Under the pieces are notes generated by a model. That model saw only the letters and a program-made list of their open reading frames with translations, was not told the DNA's origin and made no database searches. A DNA stretch of 64,000 nucleotides, taken from positions 14,872 through 78,871 of the forward strand of contig CAZPKC010000001.1 in assembly GCA_964587125.1 (NCBI GenBank). The letters run 5' to 3'. Origin of the DNA: an uncultured Rhodospirillaceae bacterium. Lineage in GTDB: Bacteria; Pseudomonadota; Alphaproteobacteria; UBA9219. Shown piece after piece: positions 5,853 through 32,744 of the stretch (its first letter is position 1; each line of letters opens with the position of its first letter). Both the position numbers and the translations under genes were made by a program.

Positions 5853-6533
5853 ATGGTTGAGTCAGTTGTTTTGGATAATGGGTCGGACGTTTCTCATTCT
5901 GATAGACTTACCTTGCTATATAAAATGAAAGATCTGCGCGCTCTGGGCGGATCCGTTGATCCCGTGAAAGATCACAACATAAAATCTAAAGACATTACCA
6001 AAGTTAAAATCGAGTCGGGGAAAGATGTGCCGGAATCTTTCGTTTCCATAACCTATATCCCGCGTAAATCGACCCTCGTTTCCCGTACATACAACGTATT
6101 GAATCATGTGGCCGACGAAACGACTGGCGATGAGCCTGTTGATGCGGTTCAAAGAATTGCCGAAAAGAATGCCGAGACTGAAAAGAGGATTCTTGAGACG
6201 GAAGAAGATATCAATACTTATCCCAAAAAAGAATCGATCGTTGGAAAAGACCCGGAAAAGTGGGTTAAGAAAGACGGGCGCTATGTCCTTCTTAATAAGA
6301 GGGAAGAAGTCCCGCACGAAAATGGGGATGAATACACGCCCGATAAGCTCCGTCGCATGAAGCTCGACCTCGCCAACAAAAGGTTCGCAAAAAATAATCC
6401 TTGCGGAACATCCGATGATTTCAATCTTGGCGCCGCAAGCGAAGAGATAAGGAGCATCCCGACGTTGGATGGATCGGAACGTCCCGTTCCCGAGTTCCTA
6501 TTTGTCGCTTCGGTCAGATCCCAGCAACTATAA
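5853..6533 (+). CDS. Hypothetical protein (~226 aa)
   Basis: ORF 5820(GTG)..6533. The ATG at 5853 is preferred because AAGGAG lies 6 nt upstream. Preceded by the CCCAATAAATATGGG motif. No recognisable domain. Confidence 0.5.
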   Translation: MVESVVLDNGSDVSHSDRLTLLYKMKDLRALGGSVDPVKDHNIKSKDITKVKIESGKDVPESFVSITYIPRKSTLVSRTYNVLNHVADETTGDEPVDAVQRIAEKNAETEKRILETEEDINTYPKKESIVGKDPEKWVKKDGRYVLLNKREEVPHENGDEYTPDKLRRMKLDLANKRFAKNNPCGTSDDFNLGAASEEIRSIPTLDGSERPVPEFLFVASVRSQQL

Positions 6534-6610
6534 AAGCCGATAAGGCGTTTACGGACAAGCTTGATTCGGACGACGCTGAAGTTACGCGTTAAGTTGGTAT
6601 ATGCGCGGGG

Positions 6611-6677
6611 TTATTCATTATGAATAATGTCTTCAATATATACCCATGAAAGCATTAGACTCGCTTGACAGAAGGCC
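6611..6677 (+). promoter_or_regulatory. Conserved upstream element copy 3: palindrome TTATTCATTATGAATAA (6611-6627), ATGAAAGCATT, TTGACA (6665-6670)
   Basis: Near-identical to 5716-5783. It lies ~100 nt upstream of the 6746 start codon. Confidence 0.5.
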
Positions 6678-6745
6678 TTTTTATTAAGAAAGTTATAGCG
6701 ATTAATTTAAATAGTCGTTGCAGATAAAATATGGGGAAAAACGTT

Positions 6746-7132
6746 ATGAAGCCATACAAGTTGGGCAAAGGATTGCCGGATGAAGTCAGGCATGCGGAAA
6801 TTGCCGCCGTTTACGATGAAATATTTTTTAGCAGGCTTGAAAATGAGGGCGTTTTTCCCGCATCGGGATATCCTCAATATTCCGCCGAGCTTCCTCCGGA
6901 AATTACAAATTTCAAACTCCCCTCCGGAAAAGATAAAAAGGCCAAGGCGATCGACACCTATGAGGAAATGCTCGATAGAAACGAGGATGTTGTTTTTCCC
7001 CACGTTAAGTCTCAAACAAGGGAGCTTCCCAAAAAAATTACTTACATTCCTTCTGTTCCTTCCGTTCCTCAAAAGGGGATGACTTTGGGAGACATGCTGA
7101 TAACGAAAGTTAGCCAGTACTTACATTTGTAA
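6746..7132 (+). CDS. Hypothetical protein (~128 aa)
   Basis: ORF 6731..7132. An alternative ATG at 6746 has GGGGA 7 nt upstream. Preceded by the AGATAAAATATGGGG motif. No recognisable domain. Confidence 0.45.
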   Translation: MKPYKLGKGLPDEVRHAEIAAVYDEIFFSRLENEGVFPASGYPQYSAELPPEITNFKLPSGKDKKAKAIDTYEEMLDRNEDVVFPHVKSQTRELPKKITYIPSVPSVPQKGMTLGDMLITKVSQYLHL

Positions 7133-7173
7133 GTAAGACGGAACACAATCGCTTTTTCCTTCGGGCTTCGGCC

Positions 7174-7890
7174 TTACGACGACAACGCCGTTTTTTGCAA
7201 AGCCGCCAGTTCGGCGATGCCTTTTTGCGCGAGACGTAAAAGCGCGTTGAATTGGGATTCGGAAAAAGGCTCCTGCTCCGCCGTGCTTTGAATCTCGACG
7301 ATGCCCCCTGCCCCCGTCAGGACAAAATTCGCGTCGACTTCGGCGTTTGAATCCTCGGCGTAATCGAGATCAAGAACGGGCTCGCCCCTGTAAAGACCGC
7401 AGGAAACAGCCGCGACCGAAGTCGTCAACGGGTTCGCCGTCAAGCGCCCCGTTTTCATCAGATAGCGGCACGCCAATCCCAAGGCAACATATCCGCCCGT
7501 GATCGATGCCGTTCGCGTGCCTCCGTCGGCTTGCAAAACGTCGCAATCGACTTTGATCTGGATTTCGCCCAGAATTTTTCTATCGACCACTGCGCGCAGG
7601 CTGCGCCCAATCAGGCGCTGGATTTCCTGCGTGCGTCCCGATTGTTTGCCTTTGGCCGCTTCGCGGTCGGTGCGTTCCGCCGTCGCGCGCGGAAGCATGC
7701 CGTATTCGGCAGTGACCCAACCCAATCCTGAATTGCGCAAAAAGGGCGGAACTTTTTCATCGACGCTCGCGGTGCACAGCACGTGCGTGTCGCCGAATTT
7801 CACAAGACACGATCCTTCGGCATATTTTGAAAATCCAGGTTCGAGAAAAACGGAACGCATTTGGTCGGAAGACCGGCGGGAGGGGCGCAT
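7174..7890 (-). CDS. rph: Ribonuclease PH
   Basis: The C-terminal 238 aa of the 289-aa ORF align by eye with RNase PH ([14 protein letters not shown]..., [24 protein letters not shown]). The upstream 51 codons are probably a non-coding extension. Confidence 0.9.
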
Positions 7891-8057
7891 GAAAAGACCT
7901 GAGGTTCGGGGTTTCAAATTTGAAGATTTGTTAGCACATTCCGCGCCTAAAGGAGCAAACAATGTTTTTTGCGCTCTAGCGGCAAAAATCCGGTTTGTGT
8001 TTTCGGCGGAAGAAAGTAGGCTCTTTTTAATTCTTTTCGTCACGCTCGGAGCCGCAC

Positions 8058-8873
8058 ATGAAGCATTTTCATCTGGCGTTGCAGGGATTTCTTACCGTCG
8101 TTCTGGTTGCGCTCGTGGCGCTGGCGTTTCCGGCGCTTATCGGAAAAACTCAGGAACTCGCGGGTTCGAAAAACGAAGAAGCGTCGCTGCCGACAGTCAG
8201 CGTTTTGTTCCTCGGCAACAGCTATACTTACGTCAACGATCTGCCGGGGATGGTCGGACAAATCGCGTCGTCCGATCCGAACTGCCGCGTGAAACTCGCC
8301 GTTCAGTCGGTGACGCGCGGCAGCGCGCGTCTCAAGGATTTATGGGACGACGGCAAGGCGTTGAAGGTTTTGCGTTCAGAGCCGTGGGATTTCGTCGTGC
8401 TTCAGGAACAAAGCCTGTGGGCCTTGAGCGGCGAACAAATCAAGATCACATTTGATGCGGCTGCCGACTGGAACAGGGAAATACTTAAAGCGTCCGGGCA
8501 TACCGTTCTTTACGGAACTTGGGCGAGGCAGGCGGGGAGTTCGTGGTACAGCGACAAGGAATATCAGGCTTGGAATTTGAAAGACGCCGACACGATGCAA
8601 CGCGCCCTCGACACTCGCACGCGCGAACTGGCGGAACGTTTGGGCGCATCCGCCATTTATGTCGGCGATGCTTGGGACAAGGCGCAGAAATTGCCGTCAC
8701 CGCCCGTTTTGTTCGCCTCGGACGGCAGTCATCCAAGCCCTGCCGGAACTTATTTGGCGGCGTTGCTTTTTTATCGCCATTTTACGGGGAGCAAACTCGA
8801 TTCCGTCCGCTTTATTCCTTCCGGCGTGACGCCGGAGCAAGCCAGAGAACTTGTCGCTCTGGCGGCGGAATAG
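8058..8873 (+). CDS. SGNH/GDSL-type hydrolase family protein with N-terminal signal/TM segment
   Basis: LFLGNSYTY (GNS block) and DGSHPS (catalytic Asp/His block) are typical of the SGNH fold. An N-terminal hydrophobic segment is present. Confidence 0.5.
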
Positions 8874-8886
8874 ATCGCCCAATTGA

Positions 8887-10194
8887 TTATGGTTCTACCG
8901 TCAAACAGCTCTTGCCGTGCTGGACGAGATACGAGCAAATGGCTTGCGCGGTTTTCTTGTCGAGAGACATCAGGCGCGCGCGGTACATGACCGTGCCGCC
9001 TCCCGCCGCGAACCTTTGCACCTGCGGATCGGGCTTGGAAGGCAAACCGGATATGCTGGAAACAAGGGAGGTAAGCGCCTGACGGCCAATCGCGGGATTG
9101 CTGTACGCGCCGATTTGCACGCCCCACGTGCCGCCTCCCGCCCGCGTCTGTTTCGGCTGACCTGCGGCAGGGGCAAGCTCCTGCAACGCTTGGGAAGAAG
9201 AAGCTTGTTCCTCGGAAGCGCCGCCGGACGGAAAAACGACAGCGACCTTTGCAGGCAAAACGACTTCTCCTTCGCTGTCGCTGTCGGCGCTGTCGCCTTC
9301 GCCCTTCGCCGAGGCGAAGTGCTGCGGATGCGTGTCGTCGTCCGCATCGGCAAAGCTTTGATCGAGAAGCTGAGCCATGTGATTATCCCGCGCGATGGCC
9401 GAACGCCCGCCAAAAACAACGGCGACGAGGCGCGTGTCGCCGCGCTTGGCCGACGCGACAAGATTAAATCCAGACGTGCGGATGTAGCCGGTCTTGATTC
9501 CGTCCATTCCGTCGTAACGGTCCATCAAATGGTTATGGTTGTGATGGTAAATTCCAGCGTAGGCAAAACTGTCGTGGGAAAAATAGGGATAGTATTCGGG
9601 ATAGTGGTTGATAAGCGCCGCTCCCAAAATCGCCATATCGTGCGCGGTCGTGACCTGATAGGGGTTCGGCAGGCCGGACGGATTGCAAAAACGCGTCCTT
9701 GTCATGCCGAGCGCCCGTGCTTGACGCGTCATCATTTCCGCAAAGGCGGATTCGCTGCCGCCTAAATTTTCCGCCAGAACCACGGCGGCGTCGTTCGCGG
9801 ATTCCGTGATGACGCCCAAAATCGCGTCCTCGACGCGGATGCGCTGCCCCGCGCGCAGGCCGAGCTTCGACGGCGATTGATAGGATGCGTTTTCGGACAC
9901 GCGCAGGTATTCGCCGAGGGTTAAACGTTCCGACTCCAACGCCTGAAAAGTCAGATAAAGCGTCATCATTTTCGTCAGCGAGGCCGGATGGCGTAAATCG
10001 TCCGAATTCGTCTCGTGGATGATTTCTCCCGATTCCGCGTCGATGACGATGTCGGCGTAACCCGCGCTTCTATCGACCGCCGCATGGACATGATGATGCC
10101 CATGATGATGGGGCCGCTTTTTGGCCAGCGCCTCCCCCGGGCTTAACGCCAGAGCCAACACGGCAAGACACATGATTATTTTGCTTATTCTCAT
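8887..10194 (-). CDS. D-alanyl-D-alanine carboxypeptidase (PBP5/6 class) with C-terminal SPOR domain
   Basis: Signal peptide, His-rich stretch (KKRPHHHGHHHVH), SxxK (ASLTKMMT), SGN and KTG motifs, a Pro/Ala-rich linker, then a SPOR-like C-terminus (WGVQIGAYSNPAIGRQAL...). Confidence 0.8.
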   Translation of the reverse strand: MRISKIIMCLAVLALALSPGEALAKKRPHHHGHHHVHAAVDRSAGYADIVIDAESGEIIHETNSDDLRHPASLTKMMTLYLTFQALESERLTLGEYLRVSENASYQSPSKLGLRAGQRIRVEDAILGVITESANDAAVVLAENLGGSESAFAEMMTRQARALGMTRTRFCNPSGLPNPYQVTTAHDMAILGAALINHYPEYYPYFSHDSFAYAGIYHHNHNHLMDRYDGMDGIKTGYIRTSGFNLVASAKRGDTRLVAVVFGGRSAIARDNHMAQLLDQSFADADDDTHPQHFASAKGEGDSADSDSEGEVVLPAKVAVVFPSGGASEEQASSSQALQELAPAAGQPKQTRAGGGTWGVQIGAYSNPAIGRQALTSLVSSISGLPSKPDPQVQRFAAGGGTVMYRARLMSLDKKTAQAICSYLVQHGKSCLTVEP

Positions 10195-10387
10195 TGGAAA
10201 CCGTCACGCATTTTCGTCGATTCGATGGGAACTTTCATAAGAATCCAAATCGCAGGGCGAATGCAAGCACCTTTTTTCCACAAGACAAAAACAGGAACGC
10301 TGGACTTCGGCGATTTTAACGCGTAATTATTAACCAAATCTAACTCGGCGGTTATCTCGTTCACTTTTAACTCGGAGGGATCGTGCC

Positions 10388-10636
10388 ATGAACTTGAATA
10401 AGAACACGTGTAAGTGCGAGCGCCTTGTTCGCATCGTTGTCGGGCTTGCGATCGCATCGCTGGCTTTCTGGGGACCGAGCAGCCCGTGGTTTCTTTTGGG
10501 ACTGATCCTCGTCGTCGTCGGCGCGGGTGGATGGTGTCCCCTTTACACGCTCTTGGGGATCGACAGGTCCAAATCCTGCAAGTGCTCATGCTGCTGTAAA
10601 GGCAAGACCGAGGACAAAGAAAAGCCCCAAGTCTAG
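10388..10636 (+). CDS. DUF2892 (YgaP-like) small inner-membrane protein
   Basis: 82 aa, two TM helices, GWCPLY motif characteristic of DUF2892. Cys-rich C-terminus. Confidence 0.55.
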   Translation: MNLNKNTCKCERLVRIVVGLAIASLAFWGPSSPWFLLGLILVVVGAGGWCPLYTLLGIDRSKSCKCSCCCKGKTEDKEKPQV

Positions 10637-10644
10637 CTAAGACT

Positions 10645-11751
10645 TTACCACGAAACGGCTGTGGCTGCTTTCTTGTCGGCTGCAAGAATTTTAGAGAGCA
10701 GCGTGATAAGTTCGAGCAATGGCTCCCACGGCATTTTACGGTTGGGATGGCGCTTGGACATGGAATCCCAGCAGTAGATGGCATGTCCCACTTTTCCAAG
10801 GCTGTTGCCCAGCGTCCAGTAAGCCTTGCTGCTGTTCTGAAGAAATTTCAGGAAGTCGGCGGACCCCGTTTTGAACTTGAACATTTTATCGTAAGAGCTT
10901 TGGTATTCGTTCAAGACGCGTTCCGCCGCATGCCATTCTTCCTGCAGGCGCGTTTTGATCATTTCCAACATCTCTTTAATTTCCGCGCGCTCCTGGCCCG
11001 ACACGGCGGCGATGGGAATTTTGACGTCTTTAAGCCACGTGGTGATATTCCCCATCGATTCAATGGTGCGCTGGTGCTCAAAGCCGTAAAAAATAATGCC
11101 TTTCCATGCGGCAAAAGTCTCAAGTTCCCTGCCCGCAGGCAAACGAAAAGCCATGACTAAGGGCTTCAAAGCTTCAAGATCGCGGCCTTCCCATATTTTT
11201 TCGACCAGCTTGCGCGCGACTTCATCGGACGATAAAGCATCGGGAAACGCCGCCTTGGCCAAGGGTTCGAAGCCTTGGAGAATAAACGCCTCGATCTGGC
11301 CCCATAATTCCTTACCGACCTCGAAATAATCGGGGTTCATATTTATTTTTTCGTTGATAAAGACATCCTTGAGCAAAAACGGATCTAGCGACGGCAATTT
11401 GTCGAGGACTTTGAGGATGCGCATATCCCCGTCCAGAAGTTCGCGGGGCAACGCGCCTTCGCCGAAATTATCGAGCAACGCCATCTCGGCGCCTTTATCG
11501 TGAACAAAGACGGTGCGTCCGCCTTCGTAGATGTCGTTCTCGTTGAAGGGCAGGTAAAGTTTGGTGCCAATGCCCGACGTGCGCGAATTCGGATCGGTAT
11601 CCTTGATCAACACCAAATTATTCAAGGGCTTGCACGAGAAAAACGTTTTGGCGTTCGGGTCTTTGGCCAGAATGCGCCGCGTCATGACGTTACAGTTCAG
11701 GACGCGCGGCGACCCGACATCGAGCATTGGTTTCAGGTATTCTTTAGTCAT
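10645..11751 (-). CDS. Hypothetical protein (368 aa)
   Basis: Long ORF with no motif I recognise. Divergent from the 12002 gene. Confidence 0.5.
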   Translation of the reverse strand: MTKEYLKPMLDVGSPRVLNCNVMTRRILAKDPNAKTFFSCKPLNNLVLIKDTDPNSRTSGIGTKLYLPFNENDIYEGGRTVFVHDKGAEMALLDNFGEGALPRELLDGDMRILKVLDKLPSLDPFLLKDVFINEKINMNPDYFEVGKELWGQIEAFILQGFEPLAKAAFPDALSSDEVARKLVEKIWEGRDLEALKPLVMAFRLPAGRELETFAAWKGIIFYGFEHQRTIESMGNITTWLKDVKIPIAAVSGQERAEIKEMLEMIKTRLQEEWHAAERVLNEYQSSYDKMFKFKTGSADFLKFLQNSSKAYWTLGNSLGKVGHAIYCWDSMSKRHPNRKMPWEPLLELITLLSKILAADKKAATAVSW

Positions 11752-12001
11752 AGGAACCAGCCAGCTAATTGAACAAAAATAAGGCGGACGAGTTTAGCTT
11801 GAATTAAGTTAAGAAAAGGTCACCAATTTCCTATTTCATGCAGAAGTATAGCGTCTTTTTCCCAATTATTGCATTTTTAGGCAAGCATGAAAGTAATATG
11901 AAACTTTACTGCTTTTGGCCCGCTTGTTATGTTGCGTCAGCCGATGGCGTGTATTTTCGGCCTTTTTGTGCAACATATTCGCGCGTTTTGGGAGATTATT
12001 T

Positions 12002-12985
12002 ATGGCATTCTTTGATGACGGGGATACTCCCTTTGACATGATGTCGGCCTTATCTTCGGCTATTAACGGGGGCCGCAACAGACAAGCTTCTATCGAAAAA
12101 AGTATCGCGGAGAGGATTGCGGAAGGACACGGGGTAAAGTTAATCAGGGACGCTTTCGATCTTTACCAAGCCGGCAACGAGCCCGAAGAGGTGTCCTACG
12201 GCGGCGGACTTTTCGCCTCCCTTATCAAAATGGGATTGGCGAAGGAAATCGCGGAAGACGATAAAATTATCCAGCAGGCGATTTCGTATTTTCGTCGCGA
12301 CAAAACGGTCGACGAAGCAACGAACGTTCTTATTCCTTTGGCGGAGAAGGGACAATCCGCCCGTATCGTCGCTTTGTATCCTGAAGTGTTTGACCGTTTG
12401 GCAGAATTATTGGCGTCGGGGGACAATTCTCTCATGACGCAAGCCTCGGCTCTTACCTCTTCCATGGCTCAAGATAAACAAGCCGACGCCATCGTCCGGC
12501 ATTCCGGATTGCTGTCCGCCATCGTTCAAGTTTATTCGGACGACACTCCTTATTCGGTCAACGAGAATGACAGGCCTTTGGAACCCACTCGTCTTGTTTT
12601 CTTCAAAATAGTGTCGGATGATCCGGACGCTAATCTGGATGCCCTTTTGGCCAATCTTTCCGAAGTCATGTCGTCTCTCCCAAACGAGCGGTTAGATGAT
12701 CCCACCGACAAAGTTACTTTGGGCGGGTATTTGCTTGCAACGCTGGTAAAGAACGAAACCGGTTCGACGGTCGTCAAGAATGAGGACGTGCTGGCAAAAA
12801 CGCGGGAATACCTTTGCGATTCAGGCGTCGGCGACAACACCCGCCGCTGCGCTATTGCCCTTGCGAATACCATCGTCGAGCATTCCGACAACGAATTTGC
12901 AGCCATGCGTTATTTTACTTTGAAGCGCTCCGGCAACGGCGTTTTAAGGGGATTTTGGGATCTTCTGCATAAGCCTCGGCGGTGA
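12002..12985 (+). CDS. Hypothetical protein (~327 aa)
   Basis: ORF 11915..12985. The ATG at 12002 is preferred because GGGAGA lies 7 nt upstream. The upstream region carries CATGAAAGTA and CCCAATTA motifs shared with the 4.2-6.7 kb elements. Confidence 0.5.
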   Translation: MAFFDDGDTPFDMMSALSSAINGGRNRQASIEKSIAERIAEGHGVKLIRDAFDLYQAGNEPEEVSYGGGLFASLIKMGLAKEIAEDDKIIQQAISYFRRDKTVDEATNVLIPLAEKGQSARIVALYPEVFDRLAELLASGDNSLMTQASALTSSMAQDKQADAIVRHSGLLSAIVQVYSDDTPYSVNENDRPLEPTRLVFFKIVSDDPDANLDALLANLSEVMSSLPNERLDDPTDKVTLGGYLLATLVKNETGSTVVKNEDVLAKTREYLCDSGVGDNTRRCAIALANTIVEHSDNEFAAMRYFTLKRSGNGVLRGFWDLLHKPRR

Positions 12986-25005: not shown

Positions 25006-25566
25006 TTATTGCACGACGGAAAGGTACGCAAGTTGCTCCAGCACCTCGTAGTGGTTTTCCAGATTGTTTATCGGAAATTTCGATTTTTCAATTTCCGAAC
25101 ACACTCCCTGAACTATCTTCACTTCCATTTTCAGATAGTTGCACATATTTTCCATGTCGCGCAGCATGAAGTAACGTTCGACATGGACGCAGATACGCAA
25201 GCTCAGTTCGGCCATATCGAGGGGCTTCGTCAAAAAATCGTCCGCGCCGCAGGACAAGGCGCGCAAGCGGGACTGCCGATCCTCTAATGCCGTCTGAACG
25301 ATGATCGGTATTTTGGGCAAGGAAGCGTCTTTGCGGATCGTTTCGCAATAACCAAAACCGTCGAGATTCGGCATATTCAAATCGAGGATCACAAGATCTG
25401 GGCAAAGGTTATAGGTTTTTTGAACGGCTTCGGCCCCGTCATCCGCTGTGACGATCCTGCTAAATCCGACTTTTTTAAGAGCTATCGAGATAAGTCGGCG
25501 ATCGAAAAGGCTATCGTCCACGACAAGGATGCGTGCGCAGGAAAATTTGGTTACGTTACCAGCCAT
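25006..25566 (-). CDS. Response regulator receiver-domain protein with ~60-aa C-terminal extension
   Basis: ILVVDDS, phospho-acceptor DLNMP and a conserved K (TKP) of a CheY-like receiver. No DNA-binding output domain recognised. Confidence 0.7.
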   Translation of the reverse strand: MAGNVTKFSCARILVVDDSLFDRRLISIALKKVGFSRIVTADDGAEAVQKTYNLCPDLVILDLNMPNLDGFGYCETIRKDASLPKIPIIVQTALEDRQSRLRALSCGADDFLTKPLDMAELSLRICVHVERYFMLRDMENMCNYLKMEVKIVQGVCSEIEKSKFPINNLENHYEVLEQLAYLSVVQ

Positions 25567-25827
25567 GATCCAATCTCCCGTTAAAGTTGATGCTAGCGCA
25601 TATAATTATCCTAAAAGTGTTTTAAACAATAGATAAAAAATAGTTCAAAAAATCCTTCTATTACTTATACATTGTACTTGAGAATGGTAAAAATATATAT
25701 AAAATCAATGGTTTATAAATAATTAATTTATTTATATGTGGTAAATTTTTTCCACAAAGGCTAATGAGCATTATTTTTTAAATCACAACTATGGGGTGAG
25801 TAAGGTAAACGGCCCGTTTTAGGATAT

Positions 25828-26454
25828 TTATTGGCGGCTGCGTTCCCCGAGGTCGTATAACAAGCTGGAATCACGCATAGAATATGTGCAGCCGCAATAT
25901 TTTTGGCGATAAAACCCCTCGCGCTTGGCTATTTCATACATACGGGAAGAACCACCGCATTTGCGCCAATCATAATCCCAATAGTTAACATCCTTATATC
26001 TTGCTGCGGCAGAATGGCCGCTGGCGTTAACCTGATCCATGTTTTTCCATCTGGAAATGCCGAAACAGGACGTGAGAAGCGGAAACCCGTTTTCATGGGC
26101 AAAAAGAGCCGAGCGCTCCAAACGCAAGTCGAAACATTTGGAACAGCGCTTGCCGCGCTCTGGCTCTCTCTCAAGGCCGCAGACGCAGGCGAACCACGTA
26201 TCGGGATCGTAATCGGCGTCGACAAAAGGGATTCCCATCCTAAGGGCAAAACGCGCGTTTTCTTCTTTGCGCCTTTCGTATTCTTCGTAAGGGTGAATGT
26301 TGGGATTGTAGAAAAAAACCGTGAAATCGATTTTCGAAGCGTGAAGCGCTTCGATAACTTCGCCCGAACACGGCGCGCAGCAGCTGTGAAGCAGGATCCT
26401 GCCGATGCCTTCGGGGATAAGAAGTTTTGCGCGTTCCGTCATGACAGGCGTCAT
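25828..26454 (-). CDS. queH: Epoxyqueuosine reductase QueH (DUF208)
   Basis: [10 protein letters not shown] and additional conserved Cys residues, 208 aa. Confidence 0.75.
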
Positions 26455-26573
26455 TATTCAGCTTTGTGGATCGGAAAACAACAGGCCTTTTCCTTTGGCT
26501 TTTCATGGGCTATGTATAGCGCGCAAATTTCCCGACTTTCATGCCCCTCTGAAAAAAAAGGGTTTCGCAATCT

Positions 26574-27734
26574 ATGTCCCCCGATAAGAAATTTTCTTGC
26601 CGCAGTTTCCGTGGCGCAAACGGAGACGCCGAACATTATATATCGATCACCGCTCCGGAAAGCCTCCTTTTCGAGGAGCAGTTGGCCTATGTACACGCGC
26701 GCCATGTTGAAGCGTTGCAGGCGTTGGGATTGAAGCCGGAAACGGCCGTATTTAAACGCGTCTTTGTCAGCGATGCGATCAATCAGGCGGGAGCGCTATA
26801 CAAAAGTCCCTTGTTTGTCGAGTCCAAAGAAAATCCCACGGCGCTTTCCCTTGTGCAGCAGCCGCCCCTGCCCTCTTCGAAAATCGCACTTTTGGCCTAT
26901 CACATCGAAAGCAAGACGCCATTCAAGAAAAAACGCCTGTCGGGACATCATCTGCTGATCGAAAAAGGAGGCTTGCGCCATTTGTGGAGCACGCATATGT
27001 GCTGCAACTCGTATGCGGCGTCATCGACCGAGGAAGTGCAGACACGCGAGGTCTTCCGCGACCTCACCGGCACGCTGGAACGCTTCGGTTGCACGATGAA
27101 AGACCATTGCGTCCGGACGTGGCTGTTCATCAAGGATGTCGATGTTTTTTATCGCGGCATGGTCAAAAGCCGCCGCGAGCTTTTCATTCAGGAAGGCCTG
27201 ACGGAGAACACGCATTACATCGCCTCGACCGGCATCGAGGGAAGCTGCGACCATCAGTTCGATCTGGTTTTGATGGACGCCTATTCGATCCTCGATCTCG
27301 ATCCGGCGCAGGTTTTTTATCTCAACGATTTCGACCACCTGTGTCCGACAAAAGATTATCAGGTCACGTTCGAGCGCGGCACGCGCATTTCCTACGCCGA
27401 TCGCGCCCACTCTTTCATTTCGGGAACGGCCAGCATCGACCGCTTCGGAAAAACCGTCCATCTGGGCGACGTGATGAAGCAATTGGAGCTGACGTTGGTT
27501 AACATCGACGCCCTTTTGAAATCGGGGAACGCAGCGATTGATGATATGATGTGCATGATCGTTTATTTGCGCGACTCCGCCGATTACGCGCGCGTGAGTG
27601 CCCGTTTGAGCGAGAGGTTCCCCGACATTCCTATGGTTATTGTCGAAGGCGCGGTTTGCCGCCCCGAATGGCTGATCGAAATCGAAGGCATCGCCATCAA
27701 GGCGAACGACGATCCGAAGATGCCGTCCTTCTAG
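26574..27734 (+). CDS. Tandem RidA/YjgF-fold protein, chorismatase (FkbO/Hyg5/XanB2)-like
   Basis: Two RidA-like halves (RTWLFIKDVDVFY... and MIVYLRDSADY...EWLIEIEGIAI), 386 aa. Assignment to the chorismatase family rests on fold and size only. Confidence 0.4.
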   Translation: MSPDKKFSCRSFRGANGDAEHYISITAPESLLFEEQLAYVHARHVEALQALGLKPETAVFKRVFVSDAINQAGALYKSPLFVESKENPTALSLVQQPPLPSSKIALLAYHIESKTPFKKKRLSGHHLLIEKGGLRHLWSTHMCCNSYAASSTEEVQTREVFRDLTGTLERFGCTMKDHCVRTWLFIKDVDVFYRGMVKSRRELFIQEGLTENTHYIASTGIEGSCDHQFDLVLMDAYSILDLDPAQVFYLNDFDHLCPTKDYQVTFERGTRISYADRAHSFISGTASIDRFGKTVHLGDVMKQLELTLVNIDALLKSGNAAIDDMMCMIVYLRDSADYARVSARLSERFPDIPMVIVEGAVCRPEWLIEIEGIAIKANDDPKMPSF

Positions 27735-27802
27735 GGACCAAACTTGACTTCGCGCCGCTTACCGCCGAATATTCTGCCCACTTAAGGAAAAGGATCAAAA
27801 AA

Positions 27803-28543
27803 ATGCAGACTAACGAAGCCTCATTCACCTATCTCGACGAAGCCGCCATCGACGCCGCCGAGTTGAAAACGACCCCTTACGAATGGGCCTATCTTCCCAA
27901 TGCCATTCCCAACCGTTTTTTGGATCAGGTTCTGGCCGACGCACCTAAAATTCCCGACCGCGGCAGCTATGGGCTTCCCGATCTTAAATACGGCCCCGAA
28001 TTCGCGGGCGTCGTCAAGGAGCTTTTGAGCGACCGCTTCCGTCATCTGGTCGAGAGAAAATTCCATATGGATTTAAGCAAGAATCCCCCCGTCATCGTGA
28101 TGATGGGAAACACGTCGGGCAAATATAACGAAGGCTACGCCCATCCGGATTCCAGACACAAAATCGTCACGGTCATCGTCGGATTCACGCGCGAATGGCC
28201 CTATGAGCATGGACGTCTGCGCGTTTTGAACGGCCCCGACCGCAACGATTACGCCTTCGAATTCGCGCCCGAATTCGGCTGCATGTGGATGTTCAAGGTT
28301 TCGGACAAATCGTGGCATGGGTTTCTTCCGCAAAAAGGGCCGCGCATGAGTCTCCAATTGTGCTATTGCGATTCCGAGGCTTACGTAAAAAGCGAATACC
28401 GCCGCCATCGCCTGAGCGCTTTCGTCAAGTCGATCCCGTTCCTTTCCAAGCTTATCAGCCTGATGCCGCGGCAAAATCCGAGCGTGAAGGCCATGAAGAA
28501 AATGGGAGCCTGCGGCTGCCAATCTCATTCCAAAAAGGACTAA
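27803..28543 (+). CDS. 2OG-Fe(II) oxygenase-like protein, paralog A
   Basis: HxD..H iron triad candidates (YAHPDSRH ... SWHGF). The ATG at 27803 has AAGGAAAAGGA upstream. Similar in layout to the next gene. Confidence 0.45.
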   Translation: MQTNEASFTYLDEAAIDAAELKTTPYEWAYLPNAIPNRFLDQVLADAPKIPDRGSYGLPDLKYGPEFAGVVKELLSDRFRHLVERKFHMDLSKNPPVIVMMGNTSGKYNEGYAHPDSRHKIVTVIVGFTREWPYEHGRLRVLNGPDRNDYAFEFAPEFGCMWMFKVSDKSWHGFLPQKGPRMSLQLCYCDSEAYVKSEYRRHRLSAFVKSIPFLSKLISLMPRQNPSVKAMKKMGACGCQSHSKKD

Positions 28544-28547
28544 TCCG

Positions 28548-29231
28548 ATGGGCATTTTCGATCTTCCCAAGCCTGCCGAAATGGCGGCGCACTTTTGCGC
28601 TTCGCTCGCATCTTGCCGCCGCGACGAGAATCCCTATACCCACTGGACCCTCAAGAATGCGCTGCCGGAAAATATCGCCGCGAACATCATGATGTTGCCG
28701 ATCAGGCCGCCTTTGATCGACGAATGCGGGGGCGTGCGCGATTTGGGCGACAATAATAACAAGCGCATTTTCTTTACGCCGAAGCTTCAGGCCGATTTTC
28801 CGGTTTGTTCGGTTTTTTCGGAAGCCCTGCAACGTCCGGAAGTCGCGCGCCTGTGCGCCAAGACTTTTGAAATCGAAGTTGAAGGCGGCTATTTGCGCAC
28901 CGAATACATTCAGGATACGGACGGCGCGTGGCTGGAACCGCATCATGACATTCCCGAAAAATTATTTTCGATGGTCATTTACCTGACTACTGGCCCCGAA
29001 GCCAAAGGATGGGGCACGGACATTTACGATCACGACAGGAAGTGGTGCGGCCGCGCTTCGGCGGAGTTCAATTCCGCCGTCGTTTTTGTGGCAGGCGAAC
29101 ACACATGGCACGGTTTCGACAAGCGCCCGATCATCGGTGTGCGGCGGTTGATGGAAATCAACTACGTCAGACCAAGCTGGCGCGACAGGGATCAACTTTC
29201 GTTCCCGGACAGACCTATCAAGACAAAGTAG
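28548..29231 (+). CDS. 2OG-Fe(II) oxygenase-like protein, paralog B
   Basis: PHHDIPEKLFSMVIYL ... TWHGF parallels paralog A (a block LPxxIxxxxL... then HxD then WHGF). It is a tandem duplicate 4 nt after gene A. Confidence 0.45.
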   Translation: MGIFDLPKPAEMAAHFCASLASCRRDENPYTHWTLKNALPENIAANIMMLPIRPPLIDECGGVRDLGDNNNKRIFFTPKLQADFPVCSVFSEALQRPEVARLCAKTFEIEVEGGYLRTEYIQDTDGAWLEPHHDIPEKLFSMVIYLTTGPEAKGWGTDIYDHDRKWCGRASAEFNSAVVFVAGEHTWHGFDKRPIIGVRRLMEINYVRPSWRDRDQLSFPDRPIKTK

Positions 29232-29369
29232 CTTCGTTCGTAGTTAACAAAAACGGCCTTCGCCGCGGCGAATAGGGTTAACGCGTAAATTATTTTCCTT
29301 GTCCTTCTCATTGTTGTGATAAGAAGGTAGGTTATGTGTTGATCTCTTTTTCAGCGGAGGCTTTTTATT

Positions 29370-30038
29370 ATGTCGATAGCAGAACTTTCGCCCGCGTATC
29401 CCGACAATACTATGGATTGGAGCGGAATCCTCACCCTTCAAAAATCCGGACGCAATACCGCCGCTTGTCTGCAGACGATCCTTTATAGAAACTTGCTCGG
29501 TTCGTACGACCGCGGGACTTTGGATATCTTATTCGCGGAACCGAACAGGGATAGAGACAGCCATGTTTTTGCTTATCGCGCAGCGACGGCTGAATTGACA
29601 AAGCAAGCTTTCGATGACACCGTTCATGTATTGTTTTTGGAAGACCGCGCTAATGCGCTTTTCAAAAAGTACGCGCCGAATCTCACGGCCCGTTACTACC
29701 CGTTCAGTATAAAAGGTAAAGAAAGTAACATCTGGTCATGGACCAATTTTATCTCCGAGACCGTAGGGGAAAACAAAGATACCTTGGTCAGATATGACGG
29801 AGGGAAAATTCATATGACGGACAATATACTCAACCACAACGGGAAATATACCGGCCTTATTGAGCGCTATCGTTGGAACGACGACAAAGCTACGATTATT
29901 TGTCCCTCTGAGCCTCCGACGCGCACGTTCGTCACCAAGCAAGCCTTTATATCGGCTATATCGGACAAATATGAAACGGGAATTCTCGTTATCAGCAACA
30001 GTGATTTTGGCAATAGTTTTCCGCAGCCTTGTTTTTAA
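29370..30038 (+). CDS. Hypothetical protein (222 aa)
   Basis: ORF with an RBS-like GGAGG upstream. Lower GC. No recognisable domain. Confidence 0.45.
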   Translation: MSIAELSPAYPDNTMDWSGILTLQKSGRNTAACLQTILYRNLLGSYDRGTLDILFAEPNRDRDSHVFAYRAATAELTKQAFDDTVHVLFLEDRANALFKKYAPNLTARYYPFSIKGKESNIWSWTNFISETVGENKDTLVRYDGGKIHMTDNILNHNGKYTGLIERYRWNDDKATIICPSEPPTRTFVTKQAFISAISDKYETGILVISNSDFGNSFPQPCF

Positions 30039-30179
30039 CCTTATTTGTCCACCGCCCCCTCTGGTGGAAACAAAATAAGCTTTTTATGGTTAACGCGCAC
30101 TCGTTGAAAGTATTTTACCGCCTTGTTTGCCACTCTTCTGCCGTGATAAAAACGGGATTATTGAAAGAAATTATATTCT

Positions 30180-30704
30180 ATGGAGTTTTTTATTATGGTG
30201 ATGGTTACACTTCTTCCGAAATACGACGAGATCGAAAATTCCACGAACGTCGTGTACGACTGCGTCAATCTGATTCTCAAGAGAAACGGCTTAAAACCGC
30301 TCGACGAGATTTTTCCCTCTGGAGCTCCGAAGAACCTTTTCAAAGAAACCGTTTCCGTTGTGAAGCTGGCGGAAGACATCAACAAGCTGTTCAAAAAGCA
30401 TTCTATCGCTCTTACGGCAAAGGCCGATGAAAACCTCGCCATTTACGAATGCGCTTATTTCACGGATCGCATATACAGCGGGTTCGACATGTTGATCAAG
30501 TATTCGAGCCGTCAGGGAAATTTTAAATCCGAGCGTACTTATTGGAGCTTGGTTAAGGCTTACGATACTGTGGACGAGCAAATATCGGTTTTGGTTCCCG
30601 CGATGAGCAAAAAAACGCAGGAGAAGTATCTTCGCATCGGAACCAGGATCAACAACGCCACGGCAAACCCCGGCTATGGCGCGATCACTTTCTGCTTAGC
30701 TTAG
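30180..30704 (+). CDS. Hypothetical protein (174 aa)
   Basis: ORF in the low-GC stretch. No recognisable domain. Confidence 0.4.
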   Translation: MEFFIMVMVTLLPKYDEIENSTNVVYDCVNLILKRNGLKPLDEIFPSGAPKNLFKETVSVVKLAEDINKLFKKHSIALTAKADENLAIYECAYFTDRIYSGFDMLIKYSSRQGNFKSERTYWSLVKAYDTVDEQISVLVPAMSKKTQEKYLRIGTRINNATANPGYGAITFCLA

Positions 30705-30770: not shown

Positions 30771-31724
30771 ATGCAAACATTAGATTTCGAGAAATCCGTC
30801 ACCGAGCTTGAAACCAAGATCGAGGAGCTGCGGCATTTGTCCGACGGCGGCCGCGTTCATATCGGCGTTGAAATCGGCAAGCTTCAGGACAAGGTCGACA
30901 AGCAGCTTCACGCGCTTTACGGCAAATTGACTCCTTCGCAAAAAGTGCAGGTCGCTCGGCACGCCGACCGCCCCCATTGCCTCGATTATATCCGCGAATT
31001 GATCGAAGAATTCACGCCTCTGGCCGGCGACCGTCTTTTCGGAGAGGATTTGGCCATTGTCGGCGGTCTCGGGCGTTTTCGCGGACAATCTTGCGTCGTG
31101 ATCGGTCAGGAACGGGGGTTCGATACCGAAAGCCGCATCAAGCACAATTTCGGAATGGCGAAGCCCGAAGGTTACCGCAAATCGCAGCGCCTGATGAAAC
31201 TGGCCGATCATTTCGGCTTGCCGATCGTCACGCTCGTCGACACGGCAGGGGCTTTTCCGGGCGTCGACGCCGAAGCGCGCGGGCAAGCCGAAGCCATCGC
31301 GCGCTCGATGGAGATATGCCTGAGCGTCGGCGTGCCGCTCGTCGCCTGCATCATCGGCGAAGGCGGTTCGGGAGGCGCTATCGCCTTGGCCGCGGGTAAT
31401 ACCGTGCTGATGCTCGAGCATTCGATTTATTCCGTTATTTCTCCGGAAGGCTGCGCGTCGATCCTGTGGCGTAGCGCAGCGAACGCGGCCGAAGCGGCGG
31501 CCGCCTTACGCCTGACCGCACAGGATTTGCTGCAGCTTGGCATCATCGACGGCATTATTCCGGAACCCGTCGGCGGCGCGCACCGCAATCCGAAGAAGGC
31601 TATCGAGGCCGCAGGGGAGGCGATAGAAAAAGCACTGGCCGACCTTTCCGGTCTCGACAAAAAAACGCTTGTTGCGGGACGCCGCAAAAAATTTCTGGAA
31701 ATGGGGAAAAAGGGGTTGGCGTAA
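30771..31724 (+). CDS. accA: Acetyl-CoA carboxylase carboxyltransferase subunit alpha
   Basis: 317 aa. [26 protein letters not shown] motifs. Confidence 0.9.
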
Positions 31725-31751: not shown

Positions 31752-32129
31752 ATGAGCGAAGAACACGAAATCATCGAGATCGAGCGAAACGCATTGAAGC
31801 GGTGGTGCGCGGGAGATCCGTCTGGTTTTTTGGAAATCTCCGCGCATGACGTCGTTTATTTCGATCCCTTTTTGCCGGAACGGCTCGACGGATGGGATAC
31901 TCTCAACGCCTATTATAAGCACCTTCGGGGCAAAGTAAGCGTCCTGCGTTTTGAGATCATCAATCCCAAAGTTCAGCAAATCGGGAACATCGCCATTCTG
32001 ACCTACAATTTTATTTCATGGGTCACCGACAAAAAATCGATTCACTGGAATTGCACGGAAGTGTTCAGGCAAACCGACTCGGTTTGGAAAATTATTCAGA
32101 CGCATTGGTCGCTCATTCATGCCGTGTGA
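31752..32129 (+). CDS. NTF2-like (SnoaL/DUF4440-type) small protein
   Basis: 125 aa with a cone-like alpha+beta pattern (W..GD...F..H..V) and a size typical of NTF2-like domains. Confidence 0.4.
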   Translation: MSEEHEIIEIERNALKRWCAGDPSGFLEISAHDVVYFDPFLPERLDGWDTLNAYYKHLRGKVSVLRFEIINPKVQQIGNIAILTYNFISWVTDKKSIHWNCTEVFRQTDSVWKIIQTHWSLIHAV

Positions 32130-32147: not shown

Positions 32148-32744
32148 ATGACCCGCCCCATTCCTCCCCGCATTGTCATCGCCACGCATAACGCCGGAAA
32201 ATTGCGCGAGTTCTCCGGCCTTCTGCGCCCGTACGTTCCGGAAATTGTCTCATCCGGAGACTTGGGTCTTCCTTCTCCCGAAGAGACCGGCGCGACATTC
32301 GCCGAGAACGCTCTTCTGAAAGCAAGGGCAGCGGCTATGGCCAGCGGTTGCCTTGCGCTCGCCGACGACAGCGGTTTGTGCGTCACGGCTTTGGGCGGAG
32401 CGCCCGGAATTTTTTCCGCAAGATGGGCGGGGTCTAAAAATAATTTTTCTGTTGCGATGCAGCGTATACAAAAAGAATTGGGAAAGGCAAAAGATCGTTC
32501 GGCTTATTTCGTTTGCGTCCTCGCTTTGTGTTGGCCCGACGGAACTTTCGACTCCGTCGAAGGCCGCGTGGAGGGAACGCTCGCGCATGCGCCGCGCGGC
32601 GCGCATGGCCATGGCTACGATCCCATTTTCATTCCGAACGGATACGAAATGACTTTTGCCGAGATGAGCGACAAAGAAAAAAATATCCTCAGCCATCGCG
32701 GAATGGCGACAAAAATTTTAGTCGAACGCTTTTTTAAATTTTGA
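32148..32744 (+). CDS. rdgB: Non-canonical purine NTP pyrophosphatase (RdgB/HAM1)
   Basis: IVIATHNAGKLREF, FAENALLKARA, SHRG motifs, 198 aa. Confidence 0.85.
   Translation: MTRPIPPRIVIATHNAGKLREFSGLLRPYVPEIVSSGDLGLPSPEETGATFAENALLKARAAAMASGCLALADDSGLCVTALGGAPGIFSARWAGSKNNFSVAMQRIQKELGKAKDRSAYFVCVLALCWPDGTFDSVEGRVEGTLAHAPRGAHGHGYDPIFIPNGYEMTFAEMSDKEKNILSHRGMATKILVERFFKF

Follow-up and report, generated by a model that had tools for sequence, protein, structure and literature searches.

What do three adjacent genes in the genome of an uncultured Rhodospirillaceae bacterium do, and which pathway do they serve? The genes lie in a stretch of 64,000 nucleotides of contig CAZPKC010000001.1, which is referred to as "the window" in this study and in whose numbering all positions are given unless another locus is named. 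The first gene, named ridA3 here (26574-27734, plus strand), encodes a protein of 386 amino acids (aa) with a PF01042 domain; the second and third (27803-28543 and 28548-29231, both on the plus strand) encode oxygenase 1 (246 aa), an Fe(II)/2-oxoglutarate oxygenase-like protein of the P4H-like superfamily, and its distant paralogue, oxygenase 2 (227 aa). The original prediction, made from the sequence and its open reading frames (ORFs), had placed them together with two orphan ORFs in a small-molecule tailoring cluster. Here we report that the genes between 26574 and 29231 represent a single copy of an unnamed three-gene unit that is widespread in bacteria, and that the most specific partner of this unit is oxygen-independent ubiquinone synthesis. 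Our preferred interpretation, to which we assign a probability of about 0.4, is that of a hypoxia-induced, chorismate-using unit tied to the supply or modification of the ubiquinone ring, and not that of antibiotic-type tailoring.

A widespread three-gene unit

At least 579 stretches in species-representative genomes encode a relative of the 386-aa protein. Eighty loci were fetched from these (the genome set), and an independent scan provided 80 additional loci from metagenomes (the metagenome set). When the neighbours of the 386-aa gene were counted in the 78 loci where 2.6 kb or more of sequence was available on either side of it, both oxygenase genes were present beside it in 62 and a single one in 11, with none in the other five. 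The co-location of the three genes, as proposed originally, thus holds in most related genomes. Oxygenase 1 adjoins ridA3 in most loci, and oxygenase 2 is adjacent in about 80% of the loci whose flanks are not cut short by a contig end. The genes are arranged as ridA3-oxy1-oxy2 in 70 loci and as oxy1-oxy2-ridA3 in 25; the existence of two orders argues for selection for co-location, beyond inherited synteny. When the ORFs surrounding the unit were all clustered de novo, no further family proved to be shared across the loci.

Homologues of each of the three proteins number in the hundreds to thousands across alpha-, beta- and gammaproteobacteria, with identities of 55-89%. Public annotation of these proteins is generic: the 386-aa protein is listed as a "Rid family hydrolase", and the other names in use are "2OG-Fe(II) oxygenase" and "SM-20-related". 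The named carriers belong almost exclusively to these three classes, which are the ubiquinone-making classes. The invariant residues are all intact in the three proteins of the window, and the genes therefore look functional. The features on which the original prediction had been staked, namely the catalytic residues of the 386-aa protein, the iron triads of the oxygenases and the co-location of the genes, were each examined, and all of them are present.

Additional copies of the oxygenase genes were seen at two loci. In L103 (12847-15027, minus strand), three more divergent paralogues of oxygenase 1 or 2 (26-38% identity) lie just downstream of a normal unit on the opposite strand, and L098 carries one additional oxygenase-1-like gene (35%).

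A predicted chorismatase fold beside two oxygenase-like proteins

Pfam picks up two RidA-like stretches in the 386-aa protein, and a PF01042 domain can be recognised only in the C-terminal lobe (residues 281-375; 62.3 bits versus a gathering score of 27.3). An AlphaFold2 model of the protein (predicted local distance difference test score, pLDDT, 79; predicted template modelling score, pTM, 0.84) was compared with the structures in the PDB using Foldseek. The best matches were the full-length chorismatases Hyg5 (5ag3, 5a3k) and FkbO (4bps), with an E value of 1e-16 and template modelling (TM) scores of 0.57-0.70. The model aligns with Hyg5 and FkbO across about 355 columns, the TM score reaching 0.70 when normalised by target length, and single-domain RidA proteins cover one third of it. 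According to this model, the 386-aa protein would be a single-chain pseudo-trimeric chorismatase fold consisting of three RidA-like lobes. The number of lobes is a statement about the model, as hhalign comparisons of the three lobes with one another gave no significant sequence similarity. The original description of two RidA/YjgF-like halves was right in that the protein is RidA-like and has the fold of a chorismatase; the model has three lobes and not two.

In an HMMER alignment with Hyg5, E369 of the window protein is aligned with Hyg5 E334 (VCRSDLLVEIEG with VCRPEWLIEIEG), and C362, G284 and G220 are aligned with C327, G240 and G173, respectively. The Hyg5 numbers of the two glycines and the cysteine were counted in the printed alignment using the offset in PMC7170507 (G164, G231 and C318 in Nat-Hyg5). 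E334 is essential in Hyg5, and the Gly/Gly/Cys set marks CH-II, the chorismatase subfamily that forms 3-hydroxybenzoate (3-HBA) (PMC7170507). E369 is shared by all of 19 close and 11 distant homologues, and no substitution is seen at any of the four residues even among relatives with 34-54% identity. Other motifs that align with Hyg5 are R-T-W, Y..R...F, S-T-G-I, S-G-T-A-S, VYLRD and VCR....E.EG; the elements R-T-W, S-T-G-I, F-E-R, D-R, G-T-A-S and C-R....E are invariant down to 34% identity. R363 occupies the position of the RidA arginine, in a chain of 386 aa and not in a homotrimer subunit of about 125 aa. The full-length match to the fold of Hyg5 and FkbO and the retention of the catalytic Glu and of Gly/Gly/Cys support the idea that the protein is chorismatase-like.

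Hyg5 (CH-II) and FkbO (CH-I) share with the 386-aa protein the whole-chain fold, the catalytic Glu, the Hyg5-type Gly/Gly/Cys, and the R-x-W, T-G-I, S-G-T-A-S and V-C-R motifs. However, the identity is only 16-19%, and the 386-aa protein is about 45 residues longer. Moreover, the two chorismatases belong to actinomycete polyketide clusters, whereas the 386-aa protein is found in Proteobacteria, beside two oxygenases and under FNR-type boxes.

The family comprises 363 clusters at 50% identity (E <1e-30), and the names of its distant members are uninformative. A metal or Fe-S site, suggested by the invariance of C143, C179, C225 and C362 among close homologues, was considered and rejected; the wider family keeps C362 only. 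A 235-aa gene upstream of the Parabacteroides homologue was likewise considered as a relative of the oxygenases and is not one. Genes for hemerythrin-domain and nitronate-monooxygenase-family proteins recur near family members in bacteria that are unrelated to each other, namely Parabacteroides (L174, Parabacteroides distasonis, 6225-12827), Sulfuriferula and Azospirillum (the other two loci being L005, 16437-17138, and L004, 10950-12053), in numbers too small to judge.

The nearest Pfam profile for the two oxygenases is PF13640. Both fall just under its cut-off of 27 bits (26.8 for oxygenase 1 and 24.6 for oxygenase 2), and many of their homologues bear a precomputed match to it. The motifs noted originally, YAHPDSRH...SWHGF in oxygenase 1 and PHHDIPE...TWHGF in oxygenase 2, were confirmed as the triad columns in the family alignments. 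In oxygenase 1 (triad H114/D116/H172), the two histidines of the triad never vary, and at least 90% of the sequences have the aspartate; K178 and S183 are also invariant, and position 181 holds Arg in 16 of 18 sequences and His in the other two. R181, a candidate contact for the C5 carboxylate of 2-oxoglutarate, aligns with the PasI Arg. In oxygenase 2, the triad residues H132, D134 and H188 are invariant, as are R199 and R200 after the distal His. Comparison of the two by hhalign (E 6e-6, 23% identity over 164 columns) indicates that they are distant homologues, in agreement with the view that they are paralogues of the 2-oxoglutarate-Fe(II) oxygenase type.

The AlphaFold2 model of oxygenase 1 (pLDDT 74.5) has the predicted double-stranded beta-helix fold, to which oxygenase 2 is tied through the hhalign match. 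The best PDB matches of the model are PasI (9ei6/9ei7, E 1.4e-10) and PolD (9blq, E 6e-9). Tpa1, PHD2 and the Pseudomonas P4H rank behind them, and the E values of the whole set range from 1e-10 to 1e-6. When profiles were compared with PDB sequences, oxygenase 1 matched PolD (E 1e-6) and PasI (E 4e-6), and oxygenase 2 matched PasI weakly (E 0.004). The titles of the PasI entries name a bound phosphorylated octosyl-acid-type small molecule. Because PolD and PasI, the nearest solved relatives, act on small molecules, a small-molecule substrate is more likely for the two oxygenases than a macromolecular one, which had been put forward as an alternative. The likeness has its limits: the HxD...H and Arg-x-Ser positions of PolD and PasI, enzymes of peptidyl-nucleoside antibiotic biosynthesis, align with those of oxygenase 1, but the identity is 16-19% and their substrates, phosphorylated octosyl-acid nucleosides, have no counterpart here.

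Past the oxygenase core, oxygenase 1 has a conserved C-terminal extension (residues 192-236; SEY.RH..SA.AKSIP.L.K..G..PR), which the model shows as helices at low to moderate confidence and which could serve to bind a partner or a membrane.

Low-oxygen context and a proposed link to the ubiquinone ring

In 134 loci, the 260 nt that precede the first gene of the unit were scanned for TTGAT-N4-ATCAA, with shuffled sequences as the control. A perfect FNR-type box was found in 45 loci and a box with one mismatch in another 31 (76/134 in total), compared with 0 perfect and 0.5 one-mismatch boxes in the control. The spacers of the boxes varied, and their distance to the start codon ranged from 70 to 210 nt. 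All 2.06 Mb examined contained 78 perfect boxes, and 45 of these lie within the segments upstream of the unit. In E. coli, FNR activates ubiUV via sites of the TTGAT-N4-ATCAA type (PMC10470549).

In one alphaproteobacterial clade (L016, L019, L025, L029, L038, L040, L044 and L050), a gene for a CRP/FNR-family regulator is located about 2 kb upstream of the unit, and the box is mostly TTGAC-N4-ATCAA, with one mismatch.

Neighbouring UbiT, UbiU and UbiV proteins were identified by clustering and scored above the cut-offs of the NCBIfam equivalogs. ubiU and/or ubiV, mostly with ubiT, are present inside the 10-kb flanks of nine of the 80 genome loci, in alpha and beta lineages; six further loci with ubiTUV genes came from the independent metagenome set. 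These genes usually adjoin the unit directly, on the same strand or divergently. Continuous rows of ubiT-ubiU-ubiV-ridA3-oxy1-oxy2 occur (e.g., L042 and L071), with an FNR box upstream of ubiT in L042; in L007, the next relative of the window (72% identity), ubiT-ubiU-...-ubiV immediately precedes the 386-aa gene. By a rough estimate for a random three-gene system in a genome of 3-4 Mb, less than one such adjacency in 80 loci is expected by chance. At the level of the family, the association with known ubi genes is thus beyond chance, and the window itself is without it. In addition, hemN is adjacent in 15 loci, often right after the 386-aa gene, and nrdD/nrdG in six. Because of the FNR boxes and the ubiTUV, hemN and nrdDG neighbours in its relatives, the unit appears to be part of a low-oxygen gene set in most carriers, sustaining cofactor and nucleotide synthesis.

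A plasmid-borne arrangement is found on pACRY03 (NC_009469.1), a conjugative plasmid of Acidiphilium cryptum JF-5. Between 2868 and 14444 of this plasmid, a transposase-flanked anaerobic island carries, in order, a perfect FNR box, ubiT-ubiU-ubiV, a homologue of the 386-aa gene (54% identity) with no accompanying oxygenases, pdxS-pdxT and nrdD-nrdG. This suggests a horizontally transferred package of oxygen-independent biosynthetic functions. A plasmid record of Acidithiobacillus ferrooxidans gave a match to the 386-aa protein with the same identity, E value and score as that of pACRY03.

From the fold, the conserved residues and the genomic context, we infer the following course of events. 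The 386-aa protein, as a divergent chorismatase, would bind chorismate in its pseudo-trimeric RidA-type pocket, where Glu369 would protonate the enolpyruvyl methylene so that pyruvate leaves, a step for which O2 would not be needed. The product would be a hydroxybenzoate (3-HBA or 4-hydroxybenzoate, 4-HBA) or a dihydroxy-cyclohexadiene carboxylate, and the cell would thereby obtain a precursor of the ubiquinone ring independently of UbiC or XanB2. Given some O2, the PolD/PasI-like oxygenases, as their linkage and nearest relatives suggest, would modify the soluble ring, most simply by hydroxylation, and the product, judging by the genomic context, would feed ubiquinone synthesis. In most relatives, a promoter of the FNR/FixK/Anr type would cause the unit to be made together with UbiTUV, HemN and NrdDG at oxygen limitation. 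The double hydroxylation of a chorismate-derived hydroxybenzoate that had been envisaged is therefore a live possibility, as ubiquinone-ring chemistry rather than as natural-product tailoring.

Such a scheme is in line with published work on the pathway. ubiC is missing from many ubiquinone-making proteobacteria (PMC5479927, PMC5714133), and Hyphomicrobium denitrificans reportedly has neither UbiC nor XanB2 (PMC12423496). XanB2 is the precedent for a chorismatase that supplies 4-HBA to ubiquinone (PMC5069965, PMC3949708). UbiA tolerates 4-hydroxybenzoate ring precursors substituted at C5 and C6; 3,4- and 2,4-dihydroxybenzoate bypass the C5 and C6 hydroxylation steps; and 2,3,4-trihydroxybenzoate is prenylated in vitro (PMC5479927). 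These facts would allow a more far-reaching scheme, namely a third, micro-oxic route to the oxygens of the ubiquinone ring, in which both oxygenases hydroxylate the soluble benzoate before prenylation, yielding for example 3,4-dihydroxy- or 2,3,4-trihydroxybenzoate, both of which are taken by UbiA/Coq2 enzymes and circumvent the C5 and C6 hydroxylases in yeast and mammals, and leaving only the C1 step to the lipid-stage hydroxylases, while the 386-aa enzyme alone would be the UbiC-independent ring source in many alphaproteobacteria. We consider this extended scheme doubtful.

Several observations weigh against a role in ubiquinone ring chemistry. First, ubiTUV genes are adjacent in just about 10% of the loci, searches of the 64-kb window with E. 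coli queries found no ubiU, ubiV or other ubi gene, and tblastn searches with E. coli UbiA, B, C, D, E, G, H, I, J and X found none of them in the window or in any locus. Second, positions 25400-27000 of the window contain no FNR-type box at up to two mismatches; the same is true for the upstream regions of its closest relatives, L006, L008 and L012, and an alignment of the four upstream regions revealed no conserved operator motif. Third, the placement of the 386-aa protein by profile succeeded only in part: the chorismatase residues align, but the match to TIGR04444, the FkbO/Hyg5 chorismatase model, reaches 52.4 bits (E 4.7e-14, residues 148-373) and fails the cut-off of 325 bits. The conserved Glu and Arg are, moreover, general features of RidA proteins, including single-domain ones, and the reaction and product of such enzymes are not predictable from alignment alone (PMC3949708). 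Fourth, distant family members (34-49% identity) are found in Parabacteroides, in a metagenome-assembled genome of Elusimicrobia and in a deltaproteobacterium. These have no oxygenase neighbours, and their lineages are not known to make ubiquinone, which argues that the basic function of the fold is not ubiquinone-specific. Finally, oxygenases that require O2 are counter-intuitive within a low-oxygen regulon. However, it is common for cells to make more of an oxygenase when its substrate is scarce, thereby holding flux, and hypoxic induction is not contradictory per se.

The Acidiphilium island fits a supply of rings and the provision of an oxygen donor equally well. Bacillus AroH, a chorismate mutase, shares its fold class with RidA, and the 386-aa enzyme might make or regenerate from chorismate, under anoxia, prephenate or a related cyclohexadienol for the U32-type hydroxylases (UbiU-UbiV and relatives), without supplying rings and with the oxygenases as accessories. 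Prephenate is the oxygen donor of UbiUV (PMC10990095); in several lineages the 386-aa gene directly follows ubiV; the island has no oxygenases; and the wider family reaches strict anaerobes such as Parabacteroides. However, the conserved residues are those of the pyruvate-releasing chorismatase type (the Glu334 equivalent and Gly/Gly/Cys), none of the searches made gave any similarity to chorismate mutases, and the tightly linked oxygenases would be left without a role. We regard a donor-forming function as unlikely for these reasons.

Three other explanations are less well supported than either the supply or modification of the ubiquinone ring or the formation of an oxygen donor. A chorismatase fold next to two oxygenases of the small-molecule type could constitute a small, self-contained pathway to a diffusible or specialised aromatic compound unrelated to ubiquinone (for example, a hydroxylated benzoate serving as a signal, antioxidant or chelator). 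XanB2-type enzymes yield 3-HBA, a diffusible factor and pigment precursor (PMC3949708), and most loci have no ubi gene nearby. Yet the neighbourhoods contain no conserved ligase, carrier protein, polyketide synthase or non-ribosomal peptide synthetase, methyltransferase, exporter or other transporter, or other biosynthetic gene; the sequences are highly conserved over three proteobacterial classes; and the FNR boxes and the recurrent ubiTUV, hemN and nrdDG genes point to core low-oxygen physiology. A tailoring cluster in the sense of secondary metabolism, as initially suggested, is not what these neighbourhoods look like, the context in the relatives being that of a low-oxygen regulon, and such a pathway is improbable in our judgement.

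It is still harder to accept that the oxygenases regulate or modify protein or RNA by hydroxylation in an oxygen-dependent manner, with the 386-aa protein acting as a RidA-type imine/enamine hydrolase. In favour of this, PF13640 groups proteins that resemble prolyl hydroxylases, the significant structural matches include Tpa1, PHD2 and the Pseudomonas P4H, the C-terminal lobe qualifies as a true PF01042 domain and keeps the RidA arginine position (R363), and regulation by low oxygen would suit oxygen sensing. Against this, the top matches in both sequence and structure are PolD and PasI and not protein hydroxylases, the full-length fold and signature residues are those of a chorismatase and not of a RidA trimer, and no candidate protein substrate is conserved in the neighbourhoods.

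PolD and PasI carry out oxidative C-C bond cleavage, a reaction that could serve to make 4-hydroxybenzoate from tyrosine or 4-hydroxyphenylpyruvate. Such a route, with the oxygenases performing C-C cleavage or decarboxylation by analogy to proposed eukaryotic oxygenase routes and the RidA-like protein, with its RidA domain, hydrolysing an imine, recalls the still putative formation of 4-hydroxybenzoate from tyrosine in animals (PMC5479927), but it is most improbable given the conserved chorismatase signature and the pairing of the 386-aa gene with ubiTUV and no oxygenases on the Acidiphilium island, which implies an oxygenase-independent role.

If the unit does serve the ubiquinone ring, its net role would equal that of UbiC, the conversion of chorismate to a ring precursor and pyruvate. 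UbiC has been described as having no relationship to the chorismatase XanB2 (PMC5069965), whereas the 386-aa protein has the chorismatase fold. XanB2 itself (CH-III, Xanthomonas; ArcB of Azoarcus) is the nearest precedent, in function, for the role proposed here, the likeness being one of description only; its genes lie in xanthomonadin/aryl-polyene pigment clusters (PMC3949708), whereas the 386-aa family is found with oxygenases and low-oxygen genes. UbiT-UbiU-UbiV have in common with the unit the type of upstream box, the adjacency in about 10% of loci and the classes of the named carriers. However, their protein families (U32 Fe-S proteins and an SCP2 protein) are unrelated to those of the unit, and UbiUV function is independent of O2, whereas the 2-oxoglutarate oxygenases of the unit require it.

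The protein superfamilies involved were already known; searches of the open-access literature found no account of the three-gene unit, of its control by FNR boxes or of its association with ubiTUV, hemN and nrdDG. Two questions are open in that literature: the source of the aromatic ring in proteobacteria that have neither UbiC nor XanB2 (PMC12423496, PMC5714133, PMC5479927), and how the ubiquinone pathway is run over the whole range of oxygen (PMC10470549). The unit is a testable candidate for both, in several hundred species at least. If our interpretation is correct, it would define a large unannotated chorismatase-fold clade (the 363 clusters) and provide the first physiological context for an unstudied pair of Fe/2-oxoglutarate oxygenases. 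If the link to ubiquinone is wrong, the unit would still be a well-delimited, uncharacterised member of a low-oxygen regulon.

Flanking genes and the orphan ORFs

All ORFs described originally are present in the window, including the divergent queH gene and the two orphans of lower GC content. queH (25828-26454, minus strand; PF02677, E 3.5e-64) is separated from the 386-aa gene by a spacer of 119 nt (26455-26573), which is presumed to hold the promoter of the unit. An Rfam search of this spacer matched no riboswitch or other RNA, and scans for promoters and terminators gave nothing above shuffle expectation.

The mechanical ORF of oxygenase 1 begins at 27551. The ATG at 27803, which is preceded by AAGGAAAAGGA, is favoured, and the gene call on the identical public contig agrees with this start and with a length of 246 aa; it is almost certainly the true start. 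Oxygenase 2 begins 4 nt after the end of oxygenase 1.

Farther out, a gene for a stand-alone response-regulator receiver protein (25006-25566, minus strand) lies beyond queH. On the other side, the orphan ORFs are followed by accA (starting at 30771), a gene for a SnoaL/DUF4440-like protein (31752-32129, plus strand) and one for an NTP pyrophosphatase of the Ham1/RdgB type (32148-32744, plus strand). The receiver gene and accA/ham1 keep their positions solely in the closest relatives of the window, L006, L007, L008 and L012.

The orphan ORFs at 29370-30038 (222 aa) and 30180-30704 (174 aa), which had been counted as part of the cluster, were rejected as members of it, as they are absent from every other locus examined and present in this genome alone. 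Their GC content is 0.43-0.46, versus 0.53-0.55. In tblastn searches of about 165 loci they matched solely the identical public contig (L001), and comparisons with Pfam, NCBIfam, PADLOC, PHROG, the PDB and viral contigs gave no match. In L006 and L012, accA follows oxygenase 2 directly or past a short gap. The orphans have the appearance of a lineage-specific insertion, about 1.5 kb long, that separates oxygenase 2 from accA.

The sole perfect TTGAT-N4-ATCAA sequence in the 64-kb window is located at 29148-29161 (TTGATGGAAATCAA), within the 3' end of the oxygenase 2 gene and about 220 nt upstream of the orphan ORF at 29370. It encodes the conserved LMEIN motif and is probably a by-product of the coding sequence; it could also drive the orphan genes.

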